From positions 6,830 through 70,829 of the forward strand of contig QMMN01000007.1 in NCBI GenBank assembly GCA_003647275.1: a stretch of 64,000 bases of DNA, written 5' to 3'. Positions 3,929 to 63,874 of this stretch are shown piece after piece (within the stretch, counting starts at the first letter, position 1; each line of letters begins with the position of its first letter). This DNA is from Deltaproteobacteria bacterium (lineage in GTDB: Bacteria; Desulfobacterota; Desulfobacteria; Desulfobacterales; C00003060). Under the pieces are notes generated by a model. That model was not told where the DNA came from. It was given only the letters and a program-made list of their open reading frames with translations, and did not search any database. Both the position numbers and the translations under genes were made by a program.

Positions 3929-4849
3929 GTGTCTTGCCAAATGCCTTCTAACCGGCCGTCATTTCAAGTGTATGGTCTGGGACAGTGTGCCCTGGACTAC
4001 ATTGGAAAAATAGACGCCTATCCCCCGCCTGATGTGAAGTGCGAGTTTTCTGACATGGTCATCCAGGGTGGCGGACCTGTGGCCACGGCCCTGGTGGCCC
4101 TTGCCAGATGGGGCCTGTCGTGTGTCTTTGCTGGCGTGCTTGGAGATGATCTGTTCAGTAGTATGATCAAGGCCTCTCTGGACGGGGAAGGAATCGATAC
4201 CAGCGGCGTGCTTGTCAGGAAGGGTTTTGACTCCCAGTTTGCCTTTATTGTGGCCGAACCGGGGGCGGGGAGGCGAACCATCTTTTGGCGAAGGCCCACG
4301 GGGCCGCCTCCAAGCCCTGATGAGATCAATTACAGCATCATCAGCCGAGCCAAGGTTGTTCTCACAGATGGGCTCTTTTTAGAGGCCGCCCTTGCCGCAT
4401 GCACGGCCGCCAGAAAAGCTGGGGGCCATGTGGTTGTGGATGCAGGTTCCCTTCGGGAAGGCATGCTTGATCTTGCCAGATTAAGCGATTATTTTATCGC
4501 ATCTGAAACCTTTGCCACAGCCCTTGTGGGAGACGACAAGCCGATGGAAGCTTGTAAGCGGCTCGCAGAACTTGGACCCCGGGTGGTGGGCGTCACACTG
4601 GGCCCAAGGGGTTATGTGGCCCTGGCTCAGGGAAAAGTCATTAAGAAATCCGCATACCCTGTCGAGGCCGTCGATACGACGGGCTGTGGCGATGTCTTTC
4701 ATGCCGGCTTCATCTATGGTCTGATCCAAGGGTGGGACATTGAGAAAAGCCTCGACTTTGCCGCCTGGGCGGCTGCCATGGTCAGCCGCAAACTGGGCGG
4801 GCGAGCCGGTATCCCCTCTCTTAAGGCGCTTTTGAAACATGGTTATTAA
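3929..4849 (+). CDS. PfkB-family carbohydrate (ribokinase-like) kinase
   Basis: C-terminal DTTGCGDVFHAGFIYG (PfkB signature 2) and N-terminal GLGQCALDYIG. The start may be GTG 3929 or ATG 3941. Confidence 0.8.
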   Translation: MSCQMPSNRPSFQVYGLGQCALDYIGKIDAYPPPDVKCEFSDMVIQGGGPVATALVALARWGLSCVFAGVLGDDLFSSMIKASLDGEGIDTSGVLVRKGFDSQFAFIVAEPGAGRRTIFWRRPTGPPPSPDEINYSIISRAKVVLTDGLFLEAALAACTAARKAGGHVVVDAGSLREGMLDLARLSDYFIASETFATALVGDDKPMEACKRLAELGPRVVGVTLGPRGYVALAQGKVIKKSAYPVEAVDTTGCGDVFHAGFIYGLIQGWDIEKSLDFAAWAAAMVSRKLGGRAGIPSLKALLKHGY

Positions 4850-38558: not shown

Positions 38559-38669
38559 CTCATATGATGCCCCGGTGCACCGCTAACCAATGTACCTCCG
38601 TGGAGCAGGCCCTGATCATTGGGGGCACATAAACGGCCAGGCCAGTACAGCCAAGGGATAAACCGCCTT

Positions 38670-41600
38670 ATGAAGCCCACGCTTGATATGCTTAAGGCCG
38701 CATGTCCAGAAGTCGATCAAAGGCTTTTGAATGCCCACCTTTCCCGGCTAAGCAACCGATATTTTGACAGGTTCGCTACGCACCAGGTTTGCGAACATAT
38801 GAAAGGACTTTCACGGATCTCAACCGAACATCCCGTGGAAGTGCTGCTGGATGCAAAAGGCGATGGGAATGTGAATTGTACGGTGCTGGCCTTTGATTAC
38901 CCTTACCTGTTTTCTCTGATCACCGGCGTGTTGGCAGGCATGGGCTTCAATATTGTGTCTGGCGATGTGTTTACATACGAACGGGCCCTCGACAAACCGC
39001 TGATAGATGTCTGCCGAAGAAAACTTACTTCCCGCAGGACAGTACAAGATCCTCTGAAAAGACGGCGTATCATAGACTTTTTTTCCGGTCAGCTGGAAAC
39101 ATCTCGCGCACCTGAAACCTGGTCGGATGATCTCAAAAAAAATATGGAAGATGTCATTTCCCTTTTGGAGCGCGGTGATAGCGAATCAGTGACTGATGCA
39201 AAACATCGAGTGAACGAAATGGTCGTCAAACGGCTGGCCGATCTGCATATGGATTCGCATCCGGTCCTGTTTCCGGTGCAAATAGAATTCGATAATGAGA
39301 GCGGTCCGTACACACGGTTGAAGATCGTGTCCGAAGATACGCCGGCCTTTCTTTACACCCTGACCAATGCCCTCTCCCTCCAAGGAATTTCGATTGAGCA
39401 CGTCAGCATACGCACCATTCACGGACGAGTTGAAGATGAAATAGAGGTTGTTGATGTTCGTGGCAAAAAGATTGAGGATCCCAATGTCTTAAGTCGCGTC
39501 AAGCTTTCGGTTCTTCTTACGAAACAGTTCACTTATTTCCTCGGGAAGGCGCCCGATCCTTATGTCGCCCTGCACCGTTTTGAACAGCTTGTCGGAGACG
39601 TCTTGCGACTGCCCGAGCGAGGCCAATGGATGGACTTGCTCTCCAACCCGCACGCCCTGCAGGATCTGGCACGGTTGCTCGGGACAAGTGATTTTTTGTG
39701 GGAAGATTTTATCCGTCTCCAGTACGAGACACTCCTGCCAATGCTTAAGCCCTTTTTGGAGGGGCACCGGTTCAGCGAGCCCGTAGACCAGCTCTCCCAA
39801 AGGCTCCGAAACGCCATAAAAGGGATCAACAAGCTGGAAGAGCAACGACGAAGGCTCAATGAATTCAAGGACCGGGAGATCTTTCTTATTGACCTGGATC
39901 ATATCCTGAATCCTGAAACGGATTTCAGGGTGCTCGCTAGAAGACTGACGGTCCTGGCGGAAAATGTTGTGAACATGGCGGCAGAACTCGCTTACGCACA
40001 CCTGGTCAAACGATTTGGAAGGCCTAGAACAGCGGCCGACCTTGAGGCCACTTTTGCCATTTTGGGGTTGGGTAAAATGGGGGGAGCCGCATTAGGCTAT
40101 GCTTCTGATATTGAACTCCTTTTTGTTTACAGCGATAACGGTTCGACGGACGGTGAAGAATCTATTGAAAATGCCGAGTTTTTTGACCGCCTGGTAAGAA
40201 ATACAACGCAATTCATACAAGCCAAGAGAGAAGGCATATTTAATGTTGATCTCAGGCTTCGCCCTTATGGAAACAATGGTCCATTGGCCTGCAGCCTGGA
40301 GAATTTTTGCCGATATTACGGACCAGAAGGATCAGCTCATTCCTATGAGCGTCTTGCTCTCGTGCGTCTGCGTGCCATAGGGGGCGATAAGAATTTGGCC
40401 GCTCGGGTGGAAAGAATTCGGGATCAAATGATTTATGCCTCTAGAAACATCAACCTCAAGGAACTGCGTGAACTGAGAAACAAGCAATTTAAGGAGAAAA
40501 CAGAAGCTGGCAAGCTTAATGCCAAGTTTAGCCCTGGCGGACTCGTGGACCTCGAATATGCCGTACAGGTTCTTCAGGTCATGTATGGCAAGGATGTGCC
40601 TCAGCTTAGGACACCTCGCATACACGAGGCCCTGACTGCCTTGACCGTTGCAGGCGTTTTATCACCAGTTGAAACAGAACAACTCACGGCTGCTTACGGT
40701 TTTCTTCGCCGCCTGATTAACGGTATGCGCATGCTCCGGGGTTCAGCAAAGGATCTTTTTCTTCCCCCCATTGATTCGGATGAATTTGCTCACCTTGCCA
40801 GGCGCATGGAATACAAAGGAGGAGGCGCACTGGATCCCACGGGGCAACTCCACATGGATGTCGAAACCCACATGGCTACCGTGCGGGCCTTTGTTGAGCG
40901 GCATTTTGGGCGCGATTCATTACCGGGGTCTGCAACCGGCACCGTAGCCGACCTGGTCCTATCCGATCGTGTGCCCCATGACCTCCGGCATCAGATTCTG
41001 TCTGGTGCTGGCTTCAAAAATCCTGCACGAGCCTATGTGAACCTCCGGGCTTTGGCAGGAGACGAATCACGCCGGCAGACATTTGCCAGGCTCGCCCTGC
41101 TGGCCTTTGACATTCTTTTGAGAACTCCAGACCCCGATATGGCCCTTAACAACTGGGAGCGGTACATCCGCGCCCTGCCGAGCCCTGAATTCCACTATAA
41201 CATACTTCTTTCTCAGCCCATGCGGCTCGAAATCCTGTTGAGCGTTTTATCTGGAAGCCAGTTTCTGGCCGATACCTTGGTGAGAAACCCGGGATTTTTG
41301 GACTGGGTCACCATCCCGAAGAACTTACACCAAATCCAAGGCAGAAAGAATCTTGAGGATGAATTAAGAATGGCTTCTGAGGGCTGCAACAGCCATAAGG
41401 TATGGCTTAATAAGCTCCGTCGATTCAGAAGACGAGAGATGCTTCGGATCGGTACACGCGATATATACCTCGGGGTGTCAACCGAGGATGTCATGCTGGA
41501 ACTCTCTACTCTTGCTGAAGCCCTTACCCAGGTAGTCCTTGAGAGGGTCTGGGCAACGCTCAAGGAGGAGCAGGAGACCGCGCAGGAGGTGGAAGCGATA

Positions 41601-42476
41601 GCAAATCACTTTTGTATCCTGGCGTTCGGTAAGCTTGGAGGCTCTGAACTCAATTACAGTTCAGATATTGACCTCCTGGGAATTTATGATGCCCCTGCCA
41701 CGTCTCTGGGGTCCAATGCTCACACCTTTTTGCAAAAGCGCTTCGCCCGGGTCATGGAAAGCGTACGAGCAGACCTTTCGATGCATACAGACGAGGGGTA
41801 TGCATATCGCGTGGACCTGCGACTCAGGCCATATGGTGGAGCGGGCGAACTCGTCCCCTCTGTTTCAGCACTCATAGATTATTATCGAAACGTGGCATCC
41901 CTCTGGGAAATTCAGGCAGCCCTTAAGATTCGGCCGGTGGCAGGCCACCTACAAATAGGTGACCATTTCCTTGAGAAGATCCGCCCTGTTCTTTTGCAAC
42001 GTCGCAAACGCGAGGCCATTGTCCATGCCATTGAAAAAATGCGCAAAGCGGCCATCAAAACCTGTTCTCGTCGCAATAGGCCCATCAGGGATGTGAAAAG
42101 CGGCATGGGTGGTTTGCGCGACGTGGAATTCCTGGTTCAAGGGCTGCAGCTCATCCATGGACCAGACCATCCCGGGTTGCTGGAGAGAAATACCCTGAAC
42201 GCCCTGGAGGGACTCCAAAAGACAGACATTCTACCTGAACCAGTGGCAGCGCAACTCAGGGAAGACTACGTGTTCTTGCGACGAGTCGAACACTATCTTC
42301 AAATTCTAGAAGATCGTCAAATACATGCCCTGCCAAAAGACCCTGATGAGCTGACCGCACTGGCCAAAAGGGTCCTTGGCGCTGAAGGGAATGCAAGCCA
42401 TTTCATGGAACAACTGGAGGGATGTCTGAAGCGCATACGGGCCGCCTATATCTCGTACCTGGTGGAAAGCAAGTGA
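38670..42476 (+). CDS. glnE: Glutamine synthetase adenylyltransferase/adenylyl-removing enzyme with an N-terminal tandem ACT-like extension
   Basis: Two nucleotidyltransferase halves (GKMGGAALGYASDIELLFVY and GKLGGSELNYSSDIDLLGIY). The first ~330 aa hold two ACT-like segments (NCTVLAFDYPYLFSLITGVLAGMGFNIVSGDVFTY and YTRLKIVSEDTPAFLYTLTNALSLQGISIEHVSIRTIHGRVEDEIEV). The start is uncertain: TTG 38619 or ATG 38670. Confidence 0.85.
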   Translation: MKPTLDMLKAACPEVDQRLLNAHLSRLSNRYFDRFATHQVCEHMKGLSRISTEHPVEVLLDAKGDGNVNCTVLAFDYPYLFSLITGVLAGMGFNIVSGDVFTYERALDKPLIDVCRRKLTSRRTVQDPLKRRRIIDFFSGQLETSRAPETWSDDLKKNMEDVISLLERGDSESVTDAKHRVNEMVVKRLADLHMDSHPVLFPVQIEFDNESGPYTRLKIVSEDTPAFLYTLTNALSLQGISIEHVSIRTIHGRVEDEIEVVDVRGKKIEDPNVLSRVKLSVLLTKQFTYFLGKAPDPYVALHRFEQLVGDVLRLPERGQWMDLLSNPHALQDLARLLGTSDFLWEDFIRLQYETLLPMLKPFLEGHRFSEPVDQLSQRLRNAIKGINKLEEQRRRLNEFKDREIFLIDLDHILNPETDFRVLARRLTVLAENVVNMAAELAYAHLVKRFGRPRTAADLEATFAILGLGKMGGAALGYASDIELLFVYSDNGSTDGEESIENAEFFDRLVRNTTQFIQAKREGIFNVDLRLRPYGNNGPLACSLENFCRYYGPEGSAHSYERLALVRLRAIGGDKNLAARVERIRDQMIYASRNINLKELRELRNKQFKEKTEAGKLNAKFSPGGLVDLEYAVQVLQVMYGKDVPQLRTPRIHEALTALTVAGVLSPVETEQLTAAYGFLRRLINGMRMLRGSAKDLFLPPIDSDEFAHLARRMEYKGGGALDPTGQLHMDVETHMATVRAFVERHFGRDSLPGSATGTVADLVLSDRVPHDLRHQILSGAGFKNPARAYVNLRALAGDESRRQTFARLALLAFDILLRTPDPDMALNNWERYIRALPSPEFHYNILLSQPMRLEILLSVLSGSQFLADTLVRNPGFLDWVTIPKNLHQIQGRKNLEDELRMASEGCNSHKVWLNKLRRFRRREMLRIGTRDIYLGVSTEDVMLELSTLAEALTQVVLERVWATLKEEQETAQEVEAIANHFCILAFGKLGGSELNYSSDIDLLGIYDAPATSLGSNAHTFLQKRFARVMESVRADLSMHTDEGYAYRVDLRLRPYGGAGELVPSVSALIDYYRNVASLWEIQAALKIRPVAGHLQIGDHFLEKIRPVLLQRRKREAIVHAIEKMRKAAIKTCSRRNRPIRDVKSGMGGLRDVEFLVQGLQLIHGPDHPGLLERNTLNALEGLQKTDILPEPVAAQLREDYVFLRRVEHYLQILEDRQIHALPKDPDELTALAKRVLGAEGNASHFMEQLEGCLKRIRAAYISYLVESK

Positions 42477-54473: not shown

Positions 54474-54802
54474 CTAGATAAACCCTTCACAGGCTATTTC
54501 CAAACCACGACAATCCAGGTTTCAGCCATCTTTTGGTGTTTGTCAGCCTCATGCCAGGTGTACGGCTGTTTGGCTCAACATCCTGTAAGGAGGGCTGGCC
54601 AGCAGCAACGTGGCCACTCATTATTGTGAATGAATCATAGAAATCTTCAATAACTAATAGGCAAAAAAATCAATATTACCTATTTGACAGGTGTATGAAA
54701 GCAAGAGACAATTCTATTTTTTGGAGAAAGGGCGTCAGTCGGCCTGATGCCGACAAGGACCGCTGACAGCAGCTCAATTCATCCGATAAAGGGGGAGGTC
54801 AT

Positions 54803-55399
54803 ATGGAAACATTGAATTGCCGGGGGCTTGCCTGTCCACAGCCTGTACTCAGGACCAAGCACTTTGTGGAATCCAATCCCCAGGTCCCGGAATTCACCAT
54901 CATCGTCGATAATGCTGCCTCAGCCCAAAATGTGGTCCGGTTTGTGGAGAGCCAGGGTTTTAGTGCCTCTCTGCAACAAAAGGGCACTGACTTTGAAATC
55001 AAGGCTATAAAGTCTGAGGAAATCGGTGCCGAAGCCGCTGGGAGGGGAGAGGTTAAGTCGAGCGAGAAGATCCTGGTGATGATCACCAAAAATACCATGG
55101 GTTCTGGAGATGATGTGCTGGGGGAAGGGCTCATGTTAAATTTTTTAAACACCCTTAACGAGATGGGCGAAGCCCTTTGGAGATTGGTTTTCCTCAACAG
55201 CGGGGTAAAGCTGACGATTGCGGGGGCCAAGACCTTGCCTGCCATACAACAACTGGAGGCACAGGGTATTAGCGTCCTGGTATGCGGTACCTGCCTGAAT
55301 CATTTCAATCTGCTGGACCAAAAGCGGGTGGGTGAGACCACGAACATGCTTGACATTGTGACAAGCCTACAGCTTGCCGACAAAGTGATCGGTGTGTGA
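54803..55399 (+). CDS. yedF: YedF-like protein (TusA/SirA-like N-domain with a CPxP motif plus a DsrE-like C-domain); sulfur/selenium carrier family
   Basis: LNCRGLACPQPVLRTK (TusA-type Cys-Pro-x-Pro). The C-terminal half ILVMITKNTMGSGDDVLGEGLM...VLVCGTCLNHF matches my memory of YedF. 198 aa. Confidence 0.65.
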   Translation: METLNCRGLACPQPVLRTKHFVESNPQVPEFTIIVDNAASAQNVVRFVESQGFSASLQQKGTDFEIKAIKSEEIGAEAAGRGEVKSSEKILVMITKNTMGSGDDVLGEGLMLNFLNTLNEMGEALWRLVFLNSGVKLTIAGAKTLPAIQQLEAQGISVLVCGTCLNHFNLLDQKRVGETTNMLDIVTSLQLADKVIGV

Positions 55400-56688
55400 T
55401 GACGGAGAAGGGCATGAATGAAAAGTATGAAAAAATGTGGGAGGACTTGGGCCTTGATATCAGTGCCCATGACGGACTCCTCAAAGTTCTGGGGCAATTT
55501 TACGGCGATATCTATCTCAGCCAGGACAAACGTCTAAAGGGGATGGAATATCTGGATTTCGTGCTGTCAGAGGTTCATGGCCTGCGGATCAAAGAACTCC
55601 AGGATGCCAGGGCGGCCGGGAAGAAAATTATTGGAACATTCTGCATGTTTGTGCCGGAAGAGCTGATCTGTGCTGCCAACAGCACGGCGGTTGGCCTCTG
55701 CGCAGGAGCAGAGATCGGCAAGGAGGCAGCTGAAAAGATCTTACCCCGCAACACCTGTGCTTTGATCAAATCCTTTGTGGGCTTTAAGCTGGCCAAGCTG
55801 TGTCCATACGTCGAATCCTGCGATTTGGTTATAGGTGAAACCACCTGCGATGGCAAAAAGAAGGCCTACGAGATCTTCCAGGAATACGTGCCCATGCATA
55901 TCATGGAGCTTCCCCAGATGAAAGGGGCTTGCGATCGGGATCTCTATATGACTGAGGTGTTGAAGTTCAAGGCAAAGATAGAAGAGGTCAGCGGCCACGA
56001 TATTACGGCAGATAATTTAAAGGAGGCCATCAAGCTCATCAATAACCGGCGGAAGGCTTTGCAGCGACTCAATCAGCTTCGCAAGGCGATCCCCACGCCG
56101 ATTTCCGGAAGGGACGTTTTGCTCATCAATCAGATATCATTCTACGATGACCCTTGGCGGTTTACCGCCAAGATTAATGAACTCTGTGATGAGCTTGAAA
56201 AGCGTGTCCAGGCAGGCGAGGGTATCGTGGAAAACGACATCCCGCGCCTCATGATGTCGGGCTGTCCCATGGCCGTGCCCAACTGGAAGCTTCCCTATGT
56301 GGTGGAGTCCTCAGGGGCAGTCATTGTGGGAGAAGAATCGTGCATCGGGACACGAAACACACGGGACTTGGTAGACGAAACCGGTGAGACAATGGAAAAG
56401 ATGATCAATGCCCTCGTGGATCGTTATATGCGTATTGACTGTGCCTGCTTTACCCCGAACCCTGAGCGCCTGGAACACATTGTAGAGATGGCCAAAGACC
56501 TCAAGGTCAATGGCGTGATCCATTACGCCCTCCAATTCTGTCATCCTTATACTATTGAAGCTTATAAAGTGGAAAAAGCCCTGGAGCAGGAGAATATTCC
56601 CCTGCTCAGGATAGAGACCGATTACAGTATGGAGGATATTGAACAGCTCAAGACCCGGGTGGAAGCGTTTGTGGAAATGGTCAAATAA
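55396..56688 (+). CDS. 2-hydroxyacyl-CoA dehydratase / benzoyl-CoA reductase BcrB-BcrC family (HGD-D) subunit, paralog 1
   Basis: IIGTFCMFVPEELI, CALIKS, IGETTCDGKKKAYE, and a C-terminal YALQFCHPY...ETDYS. The start overlaps the yedF stop. Confidence 0.8.
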   Translation: MMTEKGMNEKYEKMWEDLGLDISAHDGLLKVLGQFYGDIYLSQDKRLKGMEYLDFVLSEVHGLRIKELQDARAAGKKIIGTFCMFVPEELICAANSTAVGLCAGAEIGKEAAEKILPRNTCALIKSFVGFKLAKLCPYVESCDLVIGETTCDGKKKAYEIFQEYVPMHIMELPQMKGACDRDLYMTEVLKFKAKIEEVSGHDITADNLKEAIKLINNRRKALQRLNQLRKAIPTPISGRDVLLINQISFYDDPWRFTAKINELCDELEKRVQAGEGIVENDIPRLMMSGCPMAVPNWKLPYVVESSGAVIVGEESCIGTRNTRDLVDETGETMEKMINALVDRYMRIDCACFTPNPERLEHIVEMAKDLKVNGVIHYALQFCHPYTIEAYKVEKALEQENIPLLRIETDYSMEDIEQLKTRVEAFVEMVK

Positions 56689-56700
56689 GGAAGCAGCGCA

Positions 56701-57846
56701 TTGAGACCAGAAAGCATGTCCTTGTTTGATCGTTTGAGTGAGAAGAGTCAGCTTGAAATAGAAACGGCAAAGGAGGTCGGCACAAAGGTAGTAGGCTTGT
56801 ACTGTACCTTTGCCCCAAAAGAGCTGGTACGCGCGGTCGGTGCCATTCCTGTTGGCCTCTGCGGAAAAGATCAAACACCCATTCGTGATGCAGAAACTAT
56901 CTTACCTGCAAACCTTTGCCCCCTGATCAAGTCAAGCTACGGCTATGCCATCACAAACACGTGTCCCTATTTCTATCTTTCAGATTTTCTCATTGGGGAG
57001 ACGACCTGTGACGGCAAGAAGAAGATGTTTGAGCTCCTGGGACAACTGAAACCCTTATTTCTCATGCATCTGCCGCCCTGTTGTGATGAAAATCGGTCTT
57101 TGAATTATTGGGTCGGAGAGGTGATAAGGCTCAAAGACTTCTTAGAGAGACAGACTGGTACGAAAATAGGTGAAGAGGAATTAAGTCGCCAGATTAAGAT
57201 TCATAATAAAAAAAGGGTGTTATTAAAGGAGATTGTTGGCTACTGCGCAAATTATCCTGTACCCATTTCCGGCACGGATATGATGGTGGTGATGGAGTCC
57301 AGGAACTTTTTGGTTGATATCGAAGGCTACATAAACAATCTGCAGCGACTTGCCCGCGAGCTTCAGGCCATAAAAAGGGAGGGGAGATCGGTCTGCAGCC
57401 CCGATGCCCCGAGGATACTTCTGACAGGATGCCCGGTGGGTAAGGGTTCGGAAAAGGTTCTGCGAATAATCGAGGAATGCGGGGGTGTTGTCGTCTGTCA
57501 GGAGCATTGTACCGGCATCAAGAGTTTTAACCTGCTGGTGGACGAAGATGATGCCCCTTACAAAGCCATCGCACACCGCTATTTAAAAACCCCCTGTTCC
57601 TGCATGACACCCAACCAAGGCCGAATCGAACTCCTGTGCCAGCTCATCGAGGATTTCAAAATTCAGGGCGTGGTCGATCTAACCTGGCAGTGTTGTCATA
57701 CTTACAATGTTGAGTCCTACCTCATCAAGACGTTCTTGGAAAAAAGATACCAGATACCGCTTCTCCACCTTGAAACAGATTATTCTGAATCGGATACAGG
57801 GCAATTGAAGACCAGGATTGAGGCTCTTCTGGAGATGTTCCATTGA
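56701..57846 (+). CDS. HGD-D family subunit, paralog 2
   Basis: VVGLYCTFAPKELV, CPLIKSS, IGETTCDGKKKMFE, and TWQCCHTY...ETDYS. The start is TTG 56701 or ATG 56716. Confidence 0.8.
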   Translation: MRPESMSLFDRLSEKSQLEIETAKEVGTKVVGLYCTFAPKELVRAVGAIPVGLCGKDQTPIRDAETILPANLCPLIKSSYGYAITNTCPYFYLSDFLIGETTCDGKKKMFELLGQLKPLFLMHLPPCCDENRSLNYWVGEVIRLKDFLERQTGTKIGEEELSRQIKIHNKKRVLLKEIVGYCANYPVPISGTDMMVVMESRNFLVDIEGYINNLQRLARELQAIKREGRSVCSPDAPRILLTGCPVGKGSEKVLRIIEECGGVVVCQEHCTGIKSFNLLVDEDDAPYKAIAHRYLKTPCSCMTPNQGRIELLCQLIEDFKIQGVVDLTWQCCHTYNVESYLIKTFLEKRYQIPLLHLETDYSESDTGQLKTRIEALLEMFH

Positions 57847-57884
57847 TTGAAAATGAAATTACCAAAACCAAGGAGGATACGGAA

Positions 57885-59072
57885 ATGACCAAGACAAAAA
57901 GAGATTTAACCAGGCGGGATTTTTTGAAAAAGGCCGGTAAGGTGGCTGCCGGAACTGCACTCGTCGGACTGGCTCCAGGCATTATCACGGCGAGAAAAGT
58001 GTACGCCAAAGTACCCAATATAAATTTTGCCTACATATTATCCGACCACCACGCGCCATTAATGGTTCTGGCCAAGGAGTGGGAGCTTTTCCAGGAAAGA
58101 TACAAGATTTACATTAAACCAGTAACCGAGCACAAACTTTATGATTTCTTTTACGACGGCTCAAAGATAGCCAAGGTAAAACTAATCCCTACGAAAAAGG
58201 GACCGGACCTTGAAAAACTGGTGGCTCAGGGGAGTGTCGATATGGGGATCAGCGGCACCCAGGCTATTATCATGTCGATCGATAAGGGAGTAAAGACGAA
58301 AATCATTTCCCCACTTCAAACCGCGGGCAATGTTTTCGTACTGAAAAAAGGGCTCCCCATGAACAACTGGAACGAATTCGTCAAGGAGATAAAGGGGAGC
58401 AAGAGTCAATTCAAGATAGGAATGCCCGGTCCTCATTGTGTGGCAACCATTGTATTCAGGTCAGCCCTCGATCATGAAGGCGTTTCCTATACAGAAGATG
58501 TTACGAATCGAAAGGCCGATATCCTTTTTATTAATATGAAAGGCCACGGAAATCTTATTTCTGCATTAGCAAACAGGATAACAGAAGGCATTATCGGGGC
58601 TCAGCCATTCCCGTCGGTTACCATAAATAGGGGCCTGGGCAAGTTGATTCTTAATCTCCAGGACGTTCCTCCCAATAAAAGATGGTATGGACATGCCTGC
58701 TGCTCGGTTGAGGCAACCGAAAAGTTTATGGAAAGGGACAGAGACCTTTTGCTCAAGATGATGGAGTTGATTGTGCTCGGGGTAAATGCGGCCAATGGGA
58801 ATAAAGCGATGACTGCAAGGGCATGCTCATCCTGGCTGGGTGTTGAAGAGGCGGTTGAGAAAGTCGCAATGCCGACCCTCAATTATACGACCATCCCTTC
58901 ATCCCAGTGGACAGATAGTGTTTACACCTATGTAAAAATAATGGATGAGATGAACATGGTCACCCAAAAATTACGAGGGAAACGGGGTAAGGAGCTGGAG
59001 CCCCTTGTCTTCGATTTTCAGTATACCGAAACAGCAAAAGACAACTTGAGACTGAAAAAATTCATCGTGTAG
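57885..59072 (+). CDS. ABC substrate-binding protein, NitT/TauT (NMT1/SsuA-like) family, with a twin-arginine signal
   Basis: TRRDFLKKAGKVAAGTALVG Tat-type signal. The start is reset to ATG 57885, behind an AAGGAGG RBS. The family call rests on the partner permease/ATPase type and overall look. Confidence 0.7.
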   Translation: MTKTKRDLTRRDFLKKAGKVAAGTALVGLAPGIITARKVYAKVPNINFAYILSDHHAPLMVLAKEWELFQERYKIYIKPVTEHKLYDFFYDGSKIAKVKLIPTKKGPDLEKLVAQGSVDMGISGTQAIIMSIDKGVKTKIISPLQTAGNVFVLKKGLPMNNWNEFVKEIKGSKSQFKIGMPGPHCVATIVFRSALDHEGVSYTEDVTNRKADILFINMKGHGNLISALANRITEGIIGAQPFPSVTINRGLGKLILNLQDVPPNKRWYGHACCSVEATEKFMERDRDLLLKMMELIVLGVNAANGNKAMTARACSSWLGVEEAVEKVAMPTLNYTTIPSSQWTDSVYTYVKIMDEMNMVTQKLRGKRGKELEPLVFDFQYTETAKDNLRLKKFIV

Positions 59073-59080
59073 ATCCTCCA

Positions 59081-59917
59081 TTGGAGACAAGAAGCGTTTC
59101 AGAGAGAATATTTTTCCGCCTCTTACTCCCTGTTCTATTGGCTGTGGTCTGGCAGGTGCTGGCCATCTATTTTGATAAGCCAATGGTCCTTCCCAGGTTG
59201 GAGGCGGTGGGAAAAGTTCTGGCACATCCAAACACAAAGATTCTGATTACCGGGAGCCTTATCGAAAATATGGGCATAAGCCTCGGGAGGGTGATGTGTG
59301 GCTTTTTTCTGGCTGCTGCCATGGCCATTCCTCTGGGAATATTGATGGGCTATTATAGATTGGCCGAAAGGGTTCTTGAGTCAACAGTTGAATCCTTAAG
59401 ACCGATCCCCCCACTGGCCTGGGTCCCTCTGATTCTCTCCTGGTTCGGAATAAAAAGCCTTGCTGACTGGTTTCCGGAACTAAGTAGCAGTGTGATCTTT
59501 GGGGGCGTTCAATTTTCCATGATCATCATTATCTTGATCGGTGCCTTTTTCCCGATTTTGCTCAATACCATCCACGGGGTCAAAGGTATCCCGGTAATCT
59601 TTATTGAATCTGCCAGAACCCTCGGTTCCAGGGGCTTTTCGCTCCTTTTCAAGGTAATTGTCCCGGCCAGTCTTCCTACAATAATGACAGGTCTGCGGAT
59701 CGGGTTGGGGATAGGATGGATGTGTCTTGTAGCAGCGGAAATGATGCCGGGAAGTAATGCCGGCATGGGCTATCTTATCTGGTATGCCTATGAATTGCTT
59801 CGGACGGAGATAATCGTTGCCGGTATGATTGTCATTGGTCTTATTGGATTTGTTATGGATCGGGGTTTCAGGTATGTTGAAAAGAAACAGTTTGCCTGGG
59901 TCAGCAGAATGAAATAG
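59081..59917 (+). CDS. ABC permease, NitT/TauT (SsuC/TauC-like) family
   Basis: Six or more hydrophobic segments and the EAA-type loop ESARTLGSRGFSLLFKVIVPASLP. Apparent TTG start. Confidence 0.85.
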   Translation: METRSVSERIFFRLLLPVLLAVVWQVLAIYFDKPMVLPRLEAVGKVLAHPNTKILITGSLIENMGISLGRVMCGFFLAAAMAIPLGILMGYYRLAERVLESTVESLRPIPPLAWVPLILSWFGIKSLADWFPELSSSVIFGGVQFSMIIIILIGAFFPILLNTIHGVKGIPVIFIESARTLGSRGFSLLFKVIVPASLPTIMTGLRIGLGIGWMCLVAAEMMPGSNAGMGYLIWYAYELLRTEIIVAGMIVIGLIGFVMDRGFRYVEKKQFAWVSRMK

Positions 59918-59920
59918 GCC

Positions 59921-60682
59921 ATGTTAAAGATAATCGACGTCACGAAAACATTTAAAAAAACAGACGGCAAAAGAGTCTTAGCCATAAGCAATATGAACTT
60001 ACAGATAGAGGAAAAGGAATTTGTTTGTATTGTAGGGGCATCTGGATGCGGTAAGACCACGACCTTAAGGCTATTGTCCGGTTTAGACATCCCTACAAAA
60101 GGGAAGATTCTCGTGGATGGAAGTCCAATCAATGGCCCCAGCCCTGAACGTGGCATCGTTTTTCAGGAATATACCCTTTTCCCCTGGAGAACCGTACTGG
60201 AAAATGTGACCTTTGGCCTTGAGATGAAAAGAATCGGAAAAAAGGAGAGAAGGCGAACGGCAAGGCACTATCTCGAATTGGTAGGGCTTGAGGATTACGC
60301 TGAGGCATATCCCTATGAACTCTCCGGCGGCATGCAGCAGAGGGTGGCCATCATAAGGGCGTTGGCTGCAAATCCAAAAGTTCTGTTGATGGACGAGCCT
60401 TTTGGCGCCCTGGATGCCCGAACCAGAGATTTTTTGCAAAATGAATTGATCAGGATATGGACAAGCGAGCAAAAGACGATTTTATTTGTTACTCATAGTA
60501 TTAACGAAGCGATTTTTTTGGCTGATCGGGTAGTCGTTATGAAAAGCAGGCCTGGTAGAATTCACGACATTATTGAAATTGATCTGCCGAGACCGAGATA
60601 TAAGACAGGTGAGGTATTTAAAGATTACTACACACGAATCCATGATATGTTAGAGAACGATTTAGATAAAGAGCAGCCTTAA
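59921..60682 (+). CDS. ABC ATP-binding protein, NitT/TauT (SsuB/TauB-like) family
   Basis: Walker A GASGCGKTT, signature LSGGMQQRVAI, and Walker B VLLMDEPFGALD. Confidence 0.9.
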   Translation: MLKIIDVTKTFKKTDGKRVLAISNMNLQIEEKEFVCIVGASGCGKTTTLRLLSGLDIPTKGKILVDGSPINGPSPERGIVFQEYTLFPWRTVLENVTFGLEMKRIGKKERRRTARHYLELVGLEDYAEAYPYELSGGMQQRVAIIRALAANPKVLLMDEPFGALDARTRDFLQNELIRIWTSEQKTILFVTHSINEAIFLADRVVVMKSRPGRIHDIIEIDLPRPRYKTGEVFKDYYTRIHDMLENDLDKEQP

Positions 60683-60686
60683 TCAA

Positions 60687-62288
60687 ATGGAAATTATGCA
60701 TCATCTTGTTTTCCCCATAAATGCCCTTCCTTCTTCTCAAATGGTCGAAGAGGGGATTGATGAAATCCTCTGGAAAGCGGACGTAAAGTTCGAAGCCTTA
60801 AGGAGGTATTATGAACAGATAGAAGCCGACGTTCTGTTTTATTTCAGTGACGTTGTTATCCAGGCAGAGGCCATGGGGGCAAAGGCAAAATATTCCAGAA
60901 AAATGATGCCTGCAGTTGAGGCCACAGCCCGGGTCATGTCGCTCCCCGACCCTGCCCAGGTTCCCAGAATGGCCGTAAACGCCAACGTGTTAAGGAGGAT
61001 GGCGGGAGAGTTTCCTTATAAACTGAGAGCAGCTTTGGTCTACGGACCTTTTACTGTGGCGGGTCTGCTTGCGGGGGAGGAGGCAATATTAAGAAAACTC
61101 ATAGATGATCCCAAAGAAGTCCTGAGCCTTCTTGAAAAAACCTTTGAGTGCGCAAGAAGATACGCCCTGTATCTTGTAGAATCCGGGGCAAATTTGTTGT
61201 GGATTTCTGATCCGCTTGCCGGCCTGATTCCTCCTGATCAGTTTTGGGACTTTGCCGGTAATTTTTTGAGAAGGATTTTTGAACTGTTTGCTTCTATCCC
61301 GACCATACTTCATATTTGCGGTGATACCTATCAGATTATTCAAGCGATGGTCGGGACAGGCGTACGCGGGATCAGTTTTGATAATTGTATGGATCTCTTA
61401 GCTGTGGAGGATGAAATACCCAAAGATGTCTATATTATCGGAAATATTGATCCGGTTGAGGTCATTGAACTGGGCTCGCCGGAGGAGATTATTTCCCGGA
61501 CAACAGATCTGGTATCCATGATGGCTTTAAAGAATAATTTTGTTTTGAGCACCGGCTGTGCTGTTCCTCCCTCTGCACCCATTGAAAATGTCAGGCTCTT
61601 CCTGGAAACCGGCAGAAAATCTTTTGCTGATCTTCGACCTCATATCCCCCTGCTTTCGGAAATCAGCCGGAATGTCTATACCGGTAACGGTGAGGAAACC
61701 AAGCAGGGGGTGGCAGCGGCCCTTGAGGATGGCGTCGAGCCGCTAACCATTATTAGCAGTGGCCTGACGCGGGCCATCCGGAAGGGGAGCACTATGTATG
61801 AAGCTAAGTCGTGCTTCCTCCCAGCTATTCTTCTCATGGTCGATGCCTTTTATAAGGGATTTCAGGCTCTGGAGAACACGCTTGAACTTGGGGGGTCGAA
61901 AAAGTCATCCATCGTCCTCGGCACGGTCAAGGGCGATATCCACGAAATAGGGAAAAACCTGGTGAAAATATTTTTGGAAACTTACGGTCACAGAGTGGTT
62001 GATCTGGGAGTAGATGTGGATGAAGATGCGTTTATAAGAGCTTATCAGAAATATCACCCTACAATTATAGGCCTATCTGCCTTTACCACGGAATCCAGGA
62101 AGGAGATGGGAAAAATCATTAGTGCCTTTCATAGAGAAGGGATAAGAGAAGTGCTTTTTGTTGTTGGAGGTGCTGCCGTAAATCATGAAGTCTCTCGTTC
62201 TCTTGGTGCTGATGGATATGCCCGTGATGCGGTAAGAGCGGTGGGTATGATTGAAAAGCTGCTTCAACAATCAGAAGTCGGTGTCTAA
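60687..62288 (+). CDS. Fused URO-D-family (MtaA/CmuA-like) methyltransferase and cobalamin-binding domain protein
   Basis: The N-terminal ~340 aa look URO-D/MtaA-like. The C-terminus has a B12 cap plus the DxHxxG motif (KGDIHEIGKN), followed by GLSAFTT and VGGAAV. Confidence 0.75.
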   Translation: MEIMHHLVFPINALPSSQMVEEGIDEILWKADVKFEALRRYYEQIEADVLFYFSDVVIQAEAMGAKAKYSRKMMPAVEATARVMSLPDPAQVPRMAVNANVLRRMAGEFPYKLRAALVYGPFTVAGLLAGEEAILRKLIDDPKEVLSLLEKTFECARRYALYLVESGANLLWISDPLAGLIPPDQFWDFAGNFLRRIFELFASIPTILHICGDTYQIIQAMVGTGVRGISFDNCMDLLAVEDEIPKDVYIIGNIDPVEVIELGSPEEIISRTTDLVSMMALKNNFVLSTGCAVPPSAPIENVRLFLETGRKSFADLRPHIPLLSEISRNVYTGNGEETKQGVAAALEDGVEPLTIISSGLTRAIRKGSTMYEAKSCFLPAILLMVDAFYKGFQALENTLELGGSKKSSIVLGTVKGDIHEIGKNLVKIFLETYGHRVVDLGVDVDEDAFIRAYQKYHPTIIGLSAFTTESRKEMGKIISAFHREGIREVLFVVGGAAVNHEVSRSLGADGYARDAVRAVGMIEKLLQQSEVGV

Positions 62289-62292
62289 GCGT

Positions 62293-62871
62293 ATGACAAA
62301 AGGTGTCATTAGAGTTACTTCCAGGATGCTCAAGTACCTCAGGGTACCCCAGGACGACCAGACTATGGAGATCATATCTTCGGTACTGGAAGAAACAGTC
62401 GGTCTTATTGATATTAAAAAGTGGAGCAAGTGTGTGCTTGTTGATGATTTTTATGAGCTCTTTCACCCTTATGCCCGATCAAGCAAATCGATTTCCAAGT
62501 TGCTGGGCAGGGCAGAACACGTCTATCTGATAGTAGTAACCCTGGGTGAAGACTTAGGGAACAGAGCCAAAGAATATTTTGGAAAAAAAGAGGTCTTTAA
62601 GGGGTACATACTGGATCGATTGGGGAGCTTTTTGGTGGAAGAAGAAGTAAAAAAGATAGACCTGGAGATCACCCGACAATGCAAGGAAGATGGTCACGCC
62701 ACCACCCACCGATATAGCCCGGGGTATGGCGATTTTTCGATCAAGGCACAGCGTACATTCTTCGATTTGGCAAAGGATACTATTCCCGGATTGACAATCA
62801 GTCATGGTTGCCTTCTGTCTTCTGAGAAGACGGTGTCTGCCATAAAGGGTGTGATCAAATCAGGATATTAG
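62293..62871 (+). CDS. Stand-alone methionine-synthase-activation-domain-like protein (corrinoid reactivation?)
   Basis: About 192 aa from ATG 62293. HRYSPGYGDFSIKAQ and LLSSEKTVSAIKG resemble the Met_synt_B12-type stand-alone proteins found next to corrinoid methyltransferases. Called from memory, not verified. Confidence 0.5.
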   Translation: MTKGVIRVTSRMLKYLRVPQDDQTMEIISSVLEETVGLIDIKKWSKCVLVDDFYELFHPYARSSKSISKLLGRAEHVYLIVVTLGEDLGNRAKEYFGKKEVFKGYILDRLGSFLVEEEVKKIDLEITRQCKEDGHATTHRYSPGYGDFSIKAQRTFFDLAKDTIPGLTISHGCLLSSEKTVSAIKGVIKSGY

Positions 62872-62926
62872 AGGAAGGTGATACAAATGATCAAGACAGC
62901 CTTTGAGCATAAAGGAGAATTTTTGA

Positions 62927-63673
62927 ATGAGACTTGCCGGCATTGACATCGGTTCCCGAACAATCGAGCTGGTGGTATTGAACGAACGAGGAATAATTGA
63001 CAGCAGGCAGGTGGATTCTGGCTTTGATCCTATGGCACGCGCTAAAGCACTCCTTGAAGGGGTTGAGTATGACCGGATCATGGCCACGGGCTATGGCCGC
63101 CACCTCTTTGAGCTTTCCTTTGATGCCCCTACAGTCACGGAAATCAAGGCCTATGCGGTTGGCGCAAGGGCTTTGTTCCCTGGAGTTCGTACAATCCTTG
63201 ATATCGGAGGGCAGGACTCCAAGGCCATTGCAGTTAATGAGGCAGGCAAAGTGACCAAGTTCGAGATGAATGACCTCTGTGCCGCAGGGACGGGAAAATT
63301 TCTCGAAATCATGGCGCATGCTTTAGGCTATGATCTGGACGAGTTTGGCCTTGAGGCCCTCAAGGCCAAAAAGGATATCCAGATAAGCAACATGTGCACC
63401 GTTTTTGCGGAATCAGAGGTGACTTCTCTTCTTGCCAAAGGGGAAGACCGTCAAGACATTGCTTTGGGTTTGCACTGGTCTGTTGCGCGCCGATCGGCCA
63501 GCATGCTGAAAAGGGTCTCAGTGGAAGGCCCGATTGTATTTGCCGGAGGTGTTGCGCGCAATGTGTGCATGCAGCGGTTGTTGGAGGAAGCACTCGAAAA
63601 AGAGATTATGGTCCCAGAAGATCCCCAAATGGTGGGAGCCTATGGGGCGGCGCTCTTGGCAGGAAACACTTAA
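62927..63673 (+). CDS. HgdC/BcrAD-BadFG-family ATPase (activase of 2-hydroxyacyl-CoA-dehydratase-type enzymes)
   Basis: MRLAGIDIGSRTIELV, ATGYGR, DIGGQDSKAI, the cluster-ligand contexts NDLCAAGTGKFLE and NMCTVFAESEV, and FAGGVARN. Confidence 0.85.
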   Translation: MRLAGIDIGSRTIELVVLNERGIIDSRQVDSGFDPMARAKALLEGVEYDRIMATGYGRHLFELSFDAPTVTEIKAYAVGARALFPGVRTILDIGGQDSKAIAVNEAGKVTKFEMNDLCAAGTGKFLEIMAHALGYDLDEFGLEALKAKKDIQISNMCTVFAESEVTSLLAKGEDRQDIALGLHWSVARRSASMLKRVSVEGPIVFAGGVARNVCMQRLLEEALEKEIMVPEDPQMVGAYGAALLAGNT

Positions 63674-63874
63674 ATGAAGCTTGTTTTTGTTTGTCCTGAG
63701 AAGCATCAGGCATTTGAAACTGATGCTTATCAGATCATTGAAGACAAGGGGATCAAGATTGGCAAAACCGGAAATAAGGTCTGGGATGCAAAGGTTGAGC
63801 TCACCTTAGCCTGCCCTTTTTGTGGCAAAAGACACATTTTTCGTGCCAGTGAACTGCCGTGCCCTTTTTCTTGA
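63674..63874 (+). CDS. Small zinc-ribbon-like protein
   Basis: 66 aa with CPEKH...CPFCGKRH...CP. Its ATG directly abuts the activase stop (TAAATG). Confidence 0.4.
   Translation: MKLVFVCPEKHQAFETDAYQIIEDKGIKIGKTGNKVWDAKVELTLACPFCGKRHIFRASELPCPFS

Follow-up and report, generated by a model that had tools for sequence, protein, structure and literature searches.

Double-cubane-cluster proteins (DCCPs) were found in 2018, and their physiological substrate has been sought since. The crystallised DCCP carries an [8Fe-9S] cofactor with a sulfide bridge, and comparative genomics has tied the family to selenium: 955 of 970 DCCPs are encoded in genomes that also have SelD, and DCCP genes adjoin the ATP-binding cassette (ABC) importers of SAO loci, in 40% of SAO loci (Haft & Gwadz). 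DCCPs are also located near selenium-type Mlp clusters and MarHDK-like reductases near the non-selenium ones, and ClMlp2 transfers a methyl group from methylcobalamin to selenide (Kountz & Balskus 2023, PMC10418091). The sdm loci of M. voltae and M. maripaludis serve the use of dimethylselenide and are induced by selenium starvation. YedF has been linked with an activase and a 'dehydratase', in STRING with 'activase' and 'dehydratase subunit' in Slackia (Lin et al. 2015), and an association between DCCP, an MtaA-like corrinoid methyltransferase, an SAO-like ABC importer and selenium has been noted bioinformatically (Haft & Gwadz 2022/2023; Kountz & Balskus 2023). Here we analyse a cluster of ten genes that combines such elements, located on the plus strand at positions 54803-63874 of a 64,000-nucleotide stretch (the window) of a Deltaproteobacteria bacterium, contig QMMN01000007.1.

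All ten co-oriented open reading frames (ORFs) are found where a first-pass annotation of the sequence had placed them, and the same ten genes were returned by an independent gene caller in the public assembly of the contig (locus L027; numbers with L denote the loci compared in this study), bearing out a run of ten tightly packed plus-strand genes. Adjacent genes share 4 bp or are separated by 3-55 bp, 500 bp of non-coding DNA precede the first gene, and in L027 the coding strand switches directly beyond the tenth; because of this tight spacing, upstream gap and downstream switch, the natural reading of the arrangement, made from spacing only, is that of a single operon. Domain searches recovered all four functional elements that had been proposed: a reductase system, a methyltransferase with its activation protein, an importer and YedF.

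Proteins encoded by the cluster

The second and third genes (55396..56688 and 56701..57846; the gene caller starts the latter at 56716) encode two paralogs of the HGD-D family, 36% identical to each other and called DCCPa and DCCPb below, which score 493 and 504 bits on the DCCP model NF040772 (cut-off 350) and 119 and 109 bits on the HadC model (cut-off 700). DCCPa aligns end-to-end with the Carboxydothermus hydrogenoformans DCCP (7YYL/6ENO, E=1e-145), N-terminal extension included, and DCCPb matches 7YYL with E=5e-89, its first ~38 residues being absent; HadC and BzdN structures match the HGD-D proteins at ~1e-19 only (9e-20 for DCCPb against HadC). All cluster cysteines aligned to 7YYL are present both in DCCPa (C83, 102, 121, 136, 151, 316, 349, 351, 382) and in DCCPb (C35, 54, 73, 88, 103, 270, 299, 301, 332), at spacings that deviate by 1-2 residues from the published regular expression. 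Every equivalog score for a dehydratase or benzoyl-CoA reductase (BCR) is far below its cut-off, and no CoA-transferase or CoA-ligase genes were found in the window cluster or in the annotated related loci. The pair is thereby predicted to consist of double-cubane-cluster reductases in cofactor and activity, and not of dehydratase or BCR subunits; in the terms of a 2020 review, length and alignment would make DCCPa the long 'class I' form and DCCPb the YjiM-length form.

The matching ATPase is probably the product of the ninth gene (62927..63673), an HgdC/DCCP-R-type ATP-dependent electron-transfer activase ('archerase') that scores 231 bits on TIGR00241 (cut-off 125) and belongs to Pfam BcrAD_BadFG. 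By likeness to the C. hydrogenoformans DCCP/DCCP-R couple, ATP-driven reduction at low potential would be expected here; unlike that couple, the operon has two reductase paralogs, one long and one of YjiM length. The first-pass count of two HGD-D proteins and a single HgdC-type activase therefore stands, whereas the dehydratase option it had left open does not, the pair showing no firm clustering with a known dehydratase.

Between the reductases and the methyltransferase lies a NitT/TauT-type ABC importer, in agreement with the original annotation, with a substrate-binding protein (SBP; 57843..59072, likely start 57885; NMT1_2) that carries a twin-arginine translocation (Tat) signal, a permease with an invariant GIGWMCLVAAEMMPGS (59081..59917; BPD_transp_1) and an ATPase (59921..60682; ABC_tran). 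Foldseek with the AlphaFold2 model of the SBP (pLDDT 89) gave as best match 3UN6 (E=3e-18, target-normalised TM-score 0.83), a binding protein from Staphylococcus aureus that was deposited as 'with zinc bound', followed by binders of sulfonate, taurine, nitrate and bicarbonate. The sequence profile of the SBP also retrieves 3UN6, with the CC of the latter aligned to the HACC motif. Residues H55, H270, C272 and C273 are invariant or nearly so, and the motifs HxCC (GHACCS), SDHH (DHH) and RRxF[LIM]K are conserved in the SBP homologs, the twin arginine in those of Gram-negative hosts. From these data we infer a metal-containing binding protein, the metal probably being zinc held by His/Cys/Cys, which would explain the export of a folded protein through the Tat route, and the arrangement suggests ligand recognition by direct coordination, analogous to the His-Cys-Cys zinc site of the methyltransferase described below. 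A comparable case is found in clade B carbon monoxide dehydrogenase (CODH) operons (Inoue 2019; PMC13592312, 2026), where a 3UN6-like SBP, with a metal bound by 2 Cys and 1-2 His in an AlphaFold3 model, is encoded together with an enigmatic complex metallo-reductase thought to use the imported molecule; here, in contrast, the partner is a DCCP, the SBP is larger (~395 aa) and Tat-exported, and a corrinoid methyltransferase is present.

The closest NCBIfam models for the permease and the ATPase are those of the SAO locus, SaoP (190 bits, cut-off 295) and SaoA (264 bits, cut-off 360), both scores being below cut-off, and the SBP reaches 18 bits on SaoX (cut-off 300). No in-frame TGA was found in 13 permease or 16 SBP homologs. 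Selenocysteine in permease homologs was rejected after direct translation showed intact frames, and two truncated SBP homologs (P0205 and P0208), considered as CU variants, proved to be frameshifted or partial sequences. Cys215 of the permease, considered as an equivalent of the selenocysteine gating residue of SaoP, aligns with Ala in NrtB and CmpB.

The seventh gene (60687..62288) encodes an MtaA-like zinc methyltransferase fused to a corrinoid domain (URO-D, B12-binding_2 and B12-binding), which we call g7. Its H209-x-C211 and C291, invariant in 31 sequences, align with the LHICG...GC zinc-ligand motifs of MtaA (4AY7), the methyltransferase domain contains three invariant Cys, and the cobalamin motifs DxHxxG (417-422), SxL and GG are likewise invariant. 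The protein scores below the cut-offs of TIGR01463 (117 vs 235 bits) and PRK06252 (129 vs 244 bits) and thus falls outside the MtaA/CmuA subfamily, but nevertheless keeps the URO-D fold, the zinc ligands and the CmuA-like order of the fusion. The g7 family is discrete, with ~110 sequence clusters at 43-80% identity and next relatives at 28-32%, the methyltransferase domain being at most 32% identical to anything outside its own family. The g7 protein resembles the chloromethane enzyme CmuA in having its methyltransferase at the N terminus and its corrinoid domain at the C terminus, and resembles MtsA in that its one zinc methyltransferase could catalyse both half-reactions; unlike CmuA, MtsA and MtsD/F/H, it has no CmuB or tetrahydrofolate (H4folate) partner and occurs in hosts that are neither methanogens nor methylotrophs.

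Directly downstream, the eighth gene (62293..62871, a start supported over 62251 by conservation and by the gene caller) encodes g8, a stand-alone MetH activation domain protein of the S-adenosylmethionine (SAM)-binding, reactivating type. A family profile of 14 homologs matches PDB 1J6R (Thermotoga maritima TM0269) with E=2e-17, and the SAM-binding motif RxxxGY, here RYSPGY, is invariant, confirming the resemblance to a MetH activation domain that had been noted at first pass; g8 alone has no Pfam or NCBIfam match, and five of the 14 family members match PF02965 weakly. T. maritima has a similar arrangement, in which the stand-alone activation domain with its RxxxGY motif (TM0269) is encoded directly downstream of its cobalamin-binding partner (TM0268; Huang et al. 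2007). From this precedent and the adjacency to g7, g8 is inferred to re-methylate oxidised cob(II)alamin with SAM. The two cases differ in that the partner of g8 is not MetH, one URO-D zinc methyltransferase domain replacing the homocysteine and folate barrels of the split Thermotoga enzyme, and in that g8, unlike TM0269, is too divergent to pass PF02965 on its own.

The product of the first gene (54803..55399) is YedF, a TusA-like plus DsrE-like selenium/sulfur carrier that scores 215.6 bits on TIGR03527 (cut-off 110) and has both the CPxP (CPQP) and the CGxC (CGTC) motif.

Conservation and modularity of the cluster

With one genome scanned for each species, 26 loci were obtained, further ones came from individual homolog look-ups, and the loci were compared by tblastn synteny and by a presence table of the 27 loci found with g7. 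Eight of the ten genes recur together elsewhere, in many genomes and at 45-82% identity, showing that the clustering is not due to chance, and the genes do not separate into units with unrelated conserved neighbourhoods. A core of DCCP, SBP, permease, ATPase, methyltransferase/corrinoid protein and reactivation protein is present in ~15 Desulfobacterota genomes, and part of it in a Neomoorella. The commonest order, DCCPb-SBP-permease-ATPase-(TauE)-g7-g8, is kept down to 45% g7 identity (in L030), and the linkage was observed in L001-L003, L011, L014, L015, L017-L020, L023, L026, L028 and L030. Carriers are mostly Desulfobacterota, including Desulfatibacillum alkenivorans, Desulfosarcina variabilis, Desulfonatronum zhilinae and Desulfarculus, and g7 is further carried by metagenome-assembled genomes (MAGs) of Syntrophales, Desulfocapsaceae and Desulfohalobiaceae.

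Searches seeded with the SBP lead to the same picture. The SBP family comprises 88 clusters, all at least 46% identical save for one outlier at 33% (P0207), which keeps HxCC. Each of the SBP-seeded loci L031, L033 and L034 has a URO-D/B12 protein nearby, and two of the three have a DCCP; the URO-D/B12 protein is homologous to g7 in L031, where it is fused and accompanied by g8, and in L033, where it is fused and 35% identical. The split URO-D gene beside the DCCP-ABC unit of L034 is not a g7 homolog and was not counted as strong evidence. In L033, from Neomoorella humiferrea (Bacillota), SBP, permease, methyltransferase/corrinoid protein and DCCP are kept, and the SBP is a lipoprotein with HACC.

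Within the cluster, the parts show different degrees of attachment. A g8 homolog adjoins g7 in 22 of the 27 loci; the transporter with the HxCC SBP stands beside g7 in 15 of the 27, of which 14 also have a DCCP, and about ten loci contain g7-g8 pairs without one. A methyltransferase of the g7 family almost always has an importer of one kind or another beside it, and in most related loci DCCPb is the DCCP copy directly before the binding-protein gene. The DCCPs are tied to the importer with the HxCC SBP and not to the corrinoid protein. The activase is adjacent to a DCCPa homolog in L011, L015 and L020 and is locally absent in several loci, and a TauE/SafE (TSUP) anion permease follows the ATPase gene in eight loci (L002:9068-9796, L011, L015, L017, L018, L019, L023 and L034) and is absent in the window.

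Other transport and redox systems are also found with g7. A second, SsuA-like ABC importer, whose SBP has invariant Cys/His motifs of its own (VQFCATGHG, DKCTF, GCTK), lies directly upstream of g7 in L004 (1423-2433), L029 (7980-9991), L010, L012, L013, L016, L020, L022, L023 and L031, and one g7-g8 locus has a Liv-type ABC. In a Desulfosarcina MAG (L036:8001-17599), g7-g8 is followed by genes for a TonB-dependent receptor and a NifH-like ATPase, by two genes of the NifD/K type (Oxidored_nitro) and by an ABC system of the Peripla_BP_2/FecCD type. The methyltransferase family here has as its neighbour a second ATP-driven reductase, one that is non-homologous; this split of reductases among g7 loci parallels the DCCP/MarHDK pattern of Mlp clusters. 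A 64-aa 4-oxalocrotonate-tautomerase-like gene leads the SsuA-like system in L029 and L031, and an EamA exporter gene is located between g7 and g8 in L002. In L031 (1-9671) and L032, the gene of the HxCC SBP borders on phage tail genes (tape measure, tail L, NlpC/P60, GpJ-like) at the place where other loci have DCCPb, which a prophage insertion may have displaced. Just upstream of DCCPb in L030 (2257-5735), a PFL-like glycyl-radical enzyme is encoded in two ORFs, together with a radical-SAM activase and TetR regulators.

YedF and the tenth gene are the two members outside the conserved set. YedF, correctly identified at first pass, is not a core member, being encoded beside the cluster only in the window and in L020 (48% identity). 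In L001, the closest relative of the window cluster, a tblastn match to the last 47 residues of YedF (4279-4419, E=2e-5), located upstream of DCCPa and without an ORF, is probably a decayed yedF. The tenth gene (63674..63874), which begins at the base right after the activase stop codon, was also returned by the gene caller and would encode a 66-aa Cys-rich protein (CPxxH...CPxCGxxH...C). It has no Pfam or NCBIfam family match and no homolog in 34 related loci, even at E<=1, for which reason the 'zinc ribbon' of the original proposal was rejected as a conserved gene; it may be a doubtful or lineage-specific gene, or not a gene.

Signals for transcription and regulation were also sought. The best sigma-70-like promoter match (TTGACA-17-GACAAT, 10 of 12 positions) lies ~90 bp upstream of yedF on the plus strand (54684..54712), in a region whose count of promoter-like sites does not exceed the shuffled expectation, so that the match carries little weight; promoter and terminator scans as a whole did no better than on shuffled sequence, and a search for cobalamin or SAM riboswitches and leader RNAs gave no match at E<=0.1. 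The window contains no tRNA-Sec or other tRNAs, and no selenium genes other than yedF were found in it. Upstream of the cluster lie genes for sigma-54 activators, a TonB receptor and a response regulator, which do not accompany it in other genomes. Elsewhere in the window (38619-42476), the gene of a GlnE-like adenylyltransferase (1285 aa), which matches an ACT domain weakly and below threshold, adjoins that of a glutamine synthetase and is unrelated to the operon.

Selenium neighbours and proposed function

Genes for selenium trafficking flank five independent DCCP-containing loci within a few kb, and none of the DCCP-free loci. One of the five is the window cluster itself, through its YedF. 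In L020, DCCPa, activase, SelD and YedF form an operon divergent from the transporter. In a Syntrophales MAG (L002:14446-15495), SelD follows the activase (TIGR00476, 349 bits), and an in-frame TGA at the canonical site, HGAG-U-ACK, indicates that this SelD contains selenocysteine. YedE, TusA, DUF3343/Se_S_carrier and a Carb_kinase-like gene stand beside the cluster in Desulfosarcina variabilis (L011), and the same four are found in Neomoorella (L033); the YedE is of the selenium type, with 490 bits on TIGR04112 against 32 bits on the thiosulfate transporter TsuA. A ZnuABC-type importer and a small SAM methyltransferase with weak matches to ArsM-like selenoproteins are located between the DCCP and the YedE/DUF3343/TusA genes of L033 (15129-18284). 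If each ~6-Mb genome has ~3 selenium loci, a 20-kb span would contain one in ~1% of cases, and by this rough estimate five selenium-flanked loci among ~20 with DCCPs, with a chance of ~1e-6, are far more than expected at random.

Taken with the protein assignments, these neighbours lead us tentatively to favour a function in which the operon imports a small 'soft' compound of a chalcogen, most likely selenium in methylated or anionic form, and processes it towards selenide; candidate ligands are such as methylselenolate, species derived from dimethyl(di)selenide, or selenocyanate. The exported, metal-holding SBP would capture the ligand and hand it to the permease and ATPase, this role as an importer following from homology and the metal site and ligand being putative. 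g7, whose domains and ligand residues are those of such an enzyme, would then move a methyl group between the S or Se atom and Co(I)/CH3-Co(III), the direction of demethylation and the substrate being suggested by the ClMlp2 and SdmABC precedents, with a thiol such as sulfide at the same zinc site, as in MtsA, as the simplest guess for the methyl acceptor. In place of an ATP-dependent Ram/RACE protein, g8 would return accidentally oxidised Co(II) to the cycle in the manner of TM0268/TM0269. The DCCPs, energised by the HgdC-type ATPase, would reduce the imported compound or an intermediate at very low potential, and not the corrinoid: DCCPs track the importer and g8 covers corrinoid upkeep, which suggests that they act on the imported substance. 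YedF, where present, would take the released selenide (or sulfane) towards SelD, the end product probably being selenide for selenophosphate synthesis. The earlier proposal of an imported methylated, possibly S- or Se-containing molecule agrees with this reading; its catabolic or detoxifying role does not, as the SelD, YedF, YedE and DUF3343 neighbours point to assimilatory mobilisation of selenium rather than to catabolism or detoxification.

Several observations count against a selenium substrate. Selenium genes occur within 10 kb in only five of the ~20 DCCP-containing loci, and YedF itself in two; the g7 family also adjoins SsuA-like and Liv-type importers without selenium genes, and TauE together with the sulfonate-type transporter families points equally to sulfur. 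Neither a methyl acceptor nor a methyl-H4folate methyltransferase is encoded in any of the 34 loci. The metal site of the SBP derives from the title of 3UN6 and the AlphaFold3 model of PMC13592312, a search of the literature on YjiM/YjiL and on double-cubane clusters with selenium gave no experimental assignment of a DCCP substrate, and the SelD and YedF neighbours could serve the DCCP itself, through a selenium-bridged cofactor (Haft & Gwadz).

The strongest competitor, which we consider unlikely yet deserving of serious attention, is a metabolism of methylated sulfur, in which the imported substance would be a thiol or a methylthio compound (for instance methanethiolate, methylmercaptopropionate or, as a methylthio-sulfonate, methyl-CoM), g7 would demethylate it as MtsA does, the DCCPs would cleave or reduce the C-S skeleton like the nitrogenase-like methylthio-alkane reductase, and TauE would export sulfite. 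A His-Cys-Cys zinc site is typical of S-methyltransferases, the NitT/TauT and SsuA-like transporters and the TauE genes behind the ATPase in eight loci fit such a route, as do the glycyl-radical enzyme upstream in L030 and the nitrogenase-like reductase by g7-g8 in L036, which echoes MarHDK near non-selenium Mlp clusters, and the YedF, TusA and DsrE folds are also those of sulfur carriers. The neighbours specific to selenium, namely SelD (twice, once as a selenoprotein) and selenium-type YedE, speak for the other chalcogen, as does the tracking of SelD by DCCPs genome-wide; moreover, the hosts make sulfide and have little need to scavenge sulfur, and none of the 34 loci has a methyl-H4folate methyltransferase that would feed the methyl group into energy metabolism. 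An SAO-related handling of organometals or metalloids appears improbable: here a soft metal(loid) (Hg, As, Sb, Te or methyl derivatives) would be imported, (de)methylated by g7 and reduced by the DCCPs. SaoP and SaoA are the top NCBIfam matches of permease and ATPase, the CC motifs resemble those of SaoX/SaoB, DCCPs adjoin 40% of SAO loci, the methyltransferase domain of g7 has its three invariant Cys, and ZnuABC with the ArsM-like SAM-methyltransferase is located near the Neomoorella cluster. Yet every Sao score is below cut-off, the transporter genes are free of selenocysteine codons, no MerB-like SaoL, SaoE efflux pump, SaoT, SaoC or SaoD was found in the window or the inspected loci, ars and mer genes are absent nearby, and the neighbours are genes for selenium trafficking and not for resistance.

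Three further explanations concern the role of individual parts. SelD and YedF might supply a selenium-containing variant of the double-cubane cluster, the imported substrate being some other zinc-binding small anion; selenium genes occur only at loci with DCCPs, among them the DCCPa-activase-SelD-YedF operon of L020 and the SelD after the activase in L002, DCCP and SelD co-occur almost perfectly, and Haft & Gwadz name this as a formal possibility. We nevertheless regard it as quite improbable: the cofactor of the crystallised DCCP is sulfide-bridged, selenium supply or trafficking accounts equally well for DUF3343 and for YedE, which is a putative transporter of selenium, and the constant presence of the S/Se-type methyltransferase at these loci would be left unexplained. 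It is very improbable that the DCCPs and activase have no substrate of their own and serve, in place of Ram/RACE, to activate the corrinoid domain by ATP-driven reduction, even if the cluster lacks the Ram/RACE gene that related Mlp clusters always have and electrons delivered by an archerase have a potential low enough for Co(II)/Co(I). Against this role, g8 already gives a MetH-type route of reactivation, g7-g8 pairs without DCCP occur in ~10 loci, DCCPs stand beside SAO loci, whose paper describes no corrinoid component, the position of DCCPb co-varies with the SBP gene and not with g7, and two paralogous catalytic-type DCCPs would be excessive as an electron relay. Lastly, the locus could be a mosaic of independent units that serve no common pathway and that chance or a shared regulon has brought together, as the variable gene order, the separate occurrence of sub-modules, the lack of conservation of YedF and the tenth gene and the local loss of the activase in several loci might suggest; this is hardly credible, since the gene order DCCPb-SBP-permease-ATPase-g7-g8 persists at identities of 45% to 82% and, in part, between phyla, searches seeded with g7 and with the SBP converge on the same loci, and the window genes overlap or are closely spaced. 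Returning to the tentatively favoured selenium function, its most specific form, a first dedicated route for selenium compounds in which the zinc-thiolate SBP takes a selenolate-type anion, the B12 enzyme demethylates it and the DCCPs supply selenide to SelD/YedF, seems to us attractive but doubtful.

Relation to described systems and significance

The closest described systems are the type 1 mlp clusters (PMC10418091) and SdmABC, with which the cluster shares an MtaA-like URO-D methyltransferase with a His-Cys-Cys zinc site, a corrinoid carrier, the absence of a methyl-H4folate methyltransferase, strictly anaerobic hosts, a frequent proximity of DCCP/DCCP-reductase, Sao-like and selenium genes, and a proposed demethylation of methyl-selenium (or methyl-sulfur) compounds. 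When assessed as a type 1 mlp cluster, the locus shows the zinc site but has a single URO-D domain instead of the Mlp2 and Mlp3 pair, and the corrinoid domain is fused, with no RACE-like gene. One fused methyltransferase/corrinoid protein thus stands here in place of separate Mlp2 and Mlp3 (± Mlp1) with a corrinoid protein, a stand-alone MetH activation-domain protein stands in place of Ram/RACE, the ABC importer with its Tat/HxCC SBP is a core member, and the hosts are mainly Desulfobacterota and not Firmicutes. The SAO locus (Haft & Gwadz 2022/2023) has in common with the cluster a NitT/TauT-type ABC importer, CC-type SBP motifs, adjoining NF040772 DCCPs with an activase, anaerobic hosts and the link to selenium. 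The cluster differs in that SaoL (MerB-like), SaoE, SaoT, SaoC and SaoD are absent from its ten genes and their flanks, its transporter scores below the Sao cut-offs and has no selenocysteine codons, and it includes a corrinoid methyltransferase, a component on which the SAO paper is silent.

The cluster is therefore neither a type 1 mlp cluster, nor an SAO locus, nor a dehydratase/BCR system, while its principles of operation are in part those of these three and of the split MetH of Thermotoga. The first-pass claim that no characterised pathway joins these elements holds biochemically, whereas bioinformatically their link had already been described; our literature searches found no description of this particular architecture. 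It is distinguished by combining an MtaA-like enzyme fused to a corrinoid domain with a MetH activation protein that stands alone, an HxCC SBP exported by Tat and a long plus a short DCCP, in Desulfobacterota, and the architecture is a variant of an association known from comparative genomics, not a categorically new system.

For the anaerobes that carry it, the cluster suggests a new means of maintaining the activity of a corrinoid methyltransferase, by way of a split, SAM-dependent reactivation protein of the MetH type and not of an ATP-dependent RACE. It also unites a DCCP pair with a 3UN6-like importer and a corrinoid methyltransferase of the S/Se type in one unit, with SelD, YedF or YedE adjoining in several lineages, a genomic context that offers a candidate substrate class for DCCPs as a concrete, testable hypothesis; Desulfosarcina variabilis, Desulfatibacillum alkenivorans and Desulfonatronum zhilinae are cultured carriers. 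If the selenium route is true, it would give the long-sought physiological role of DCCPs and would suggest the substrate class of the 3UN6-like importers of SAO loci and clade B CODHs.

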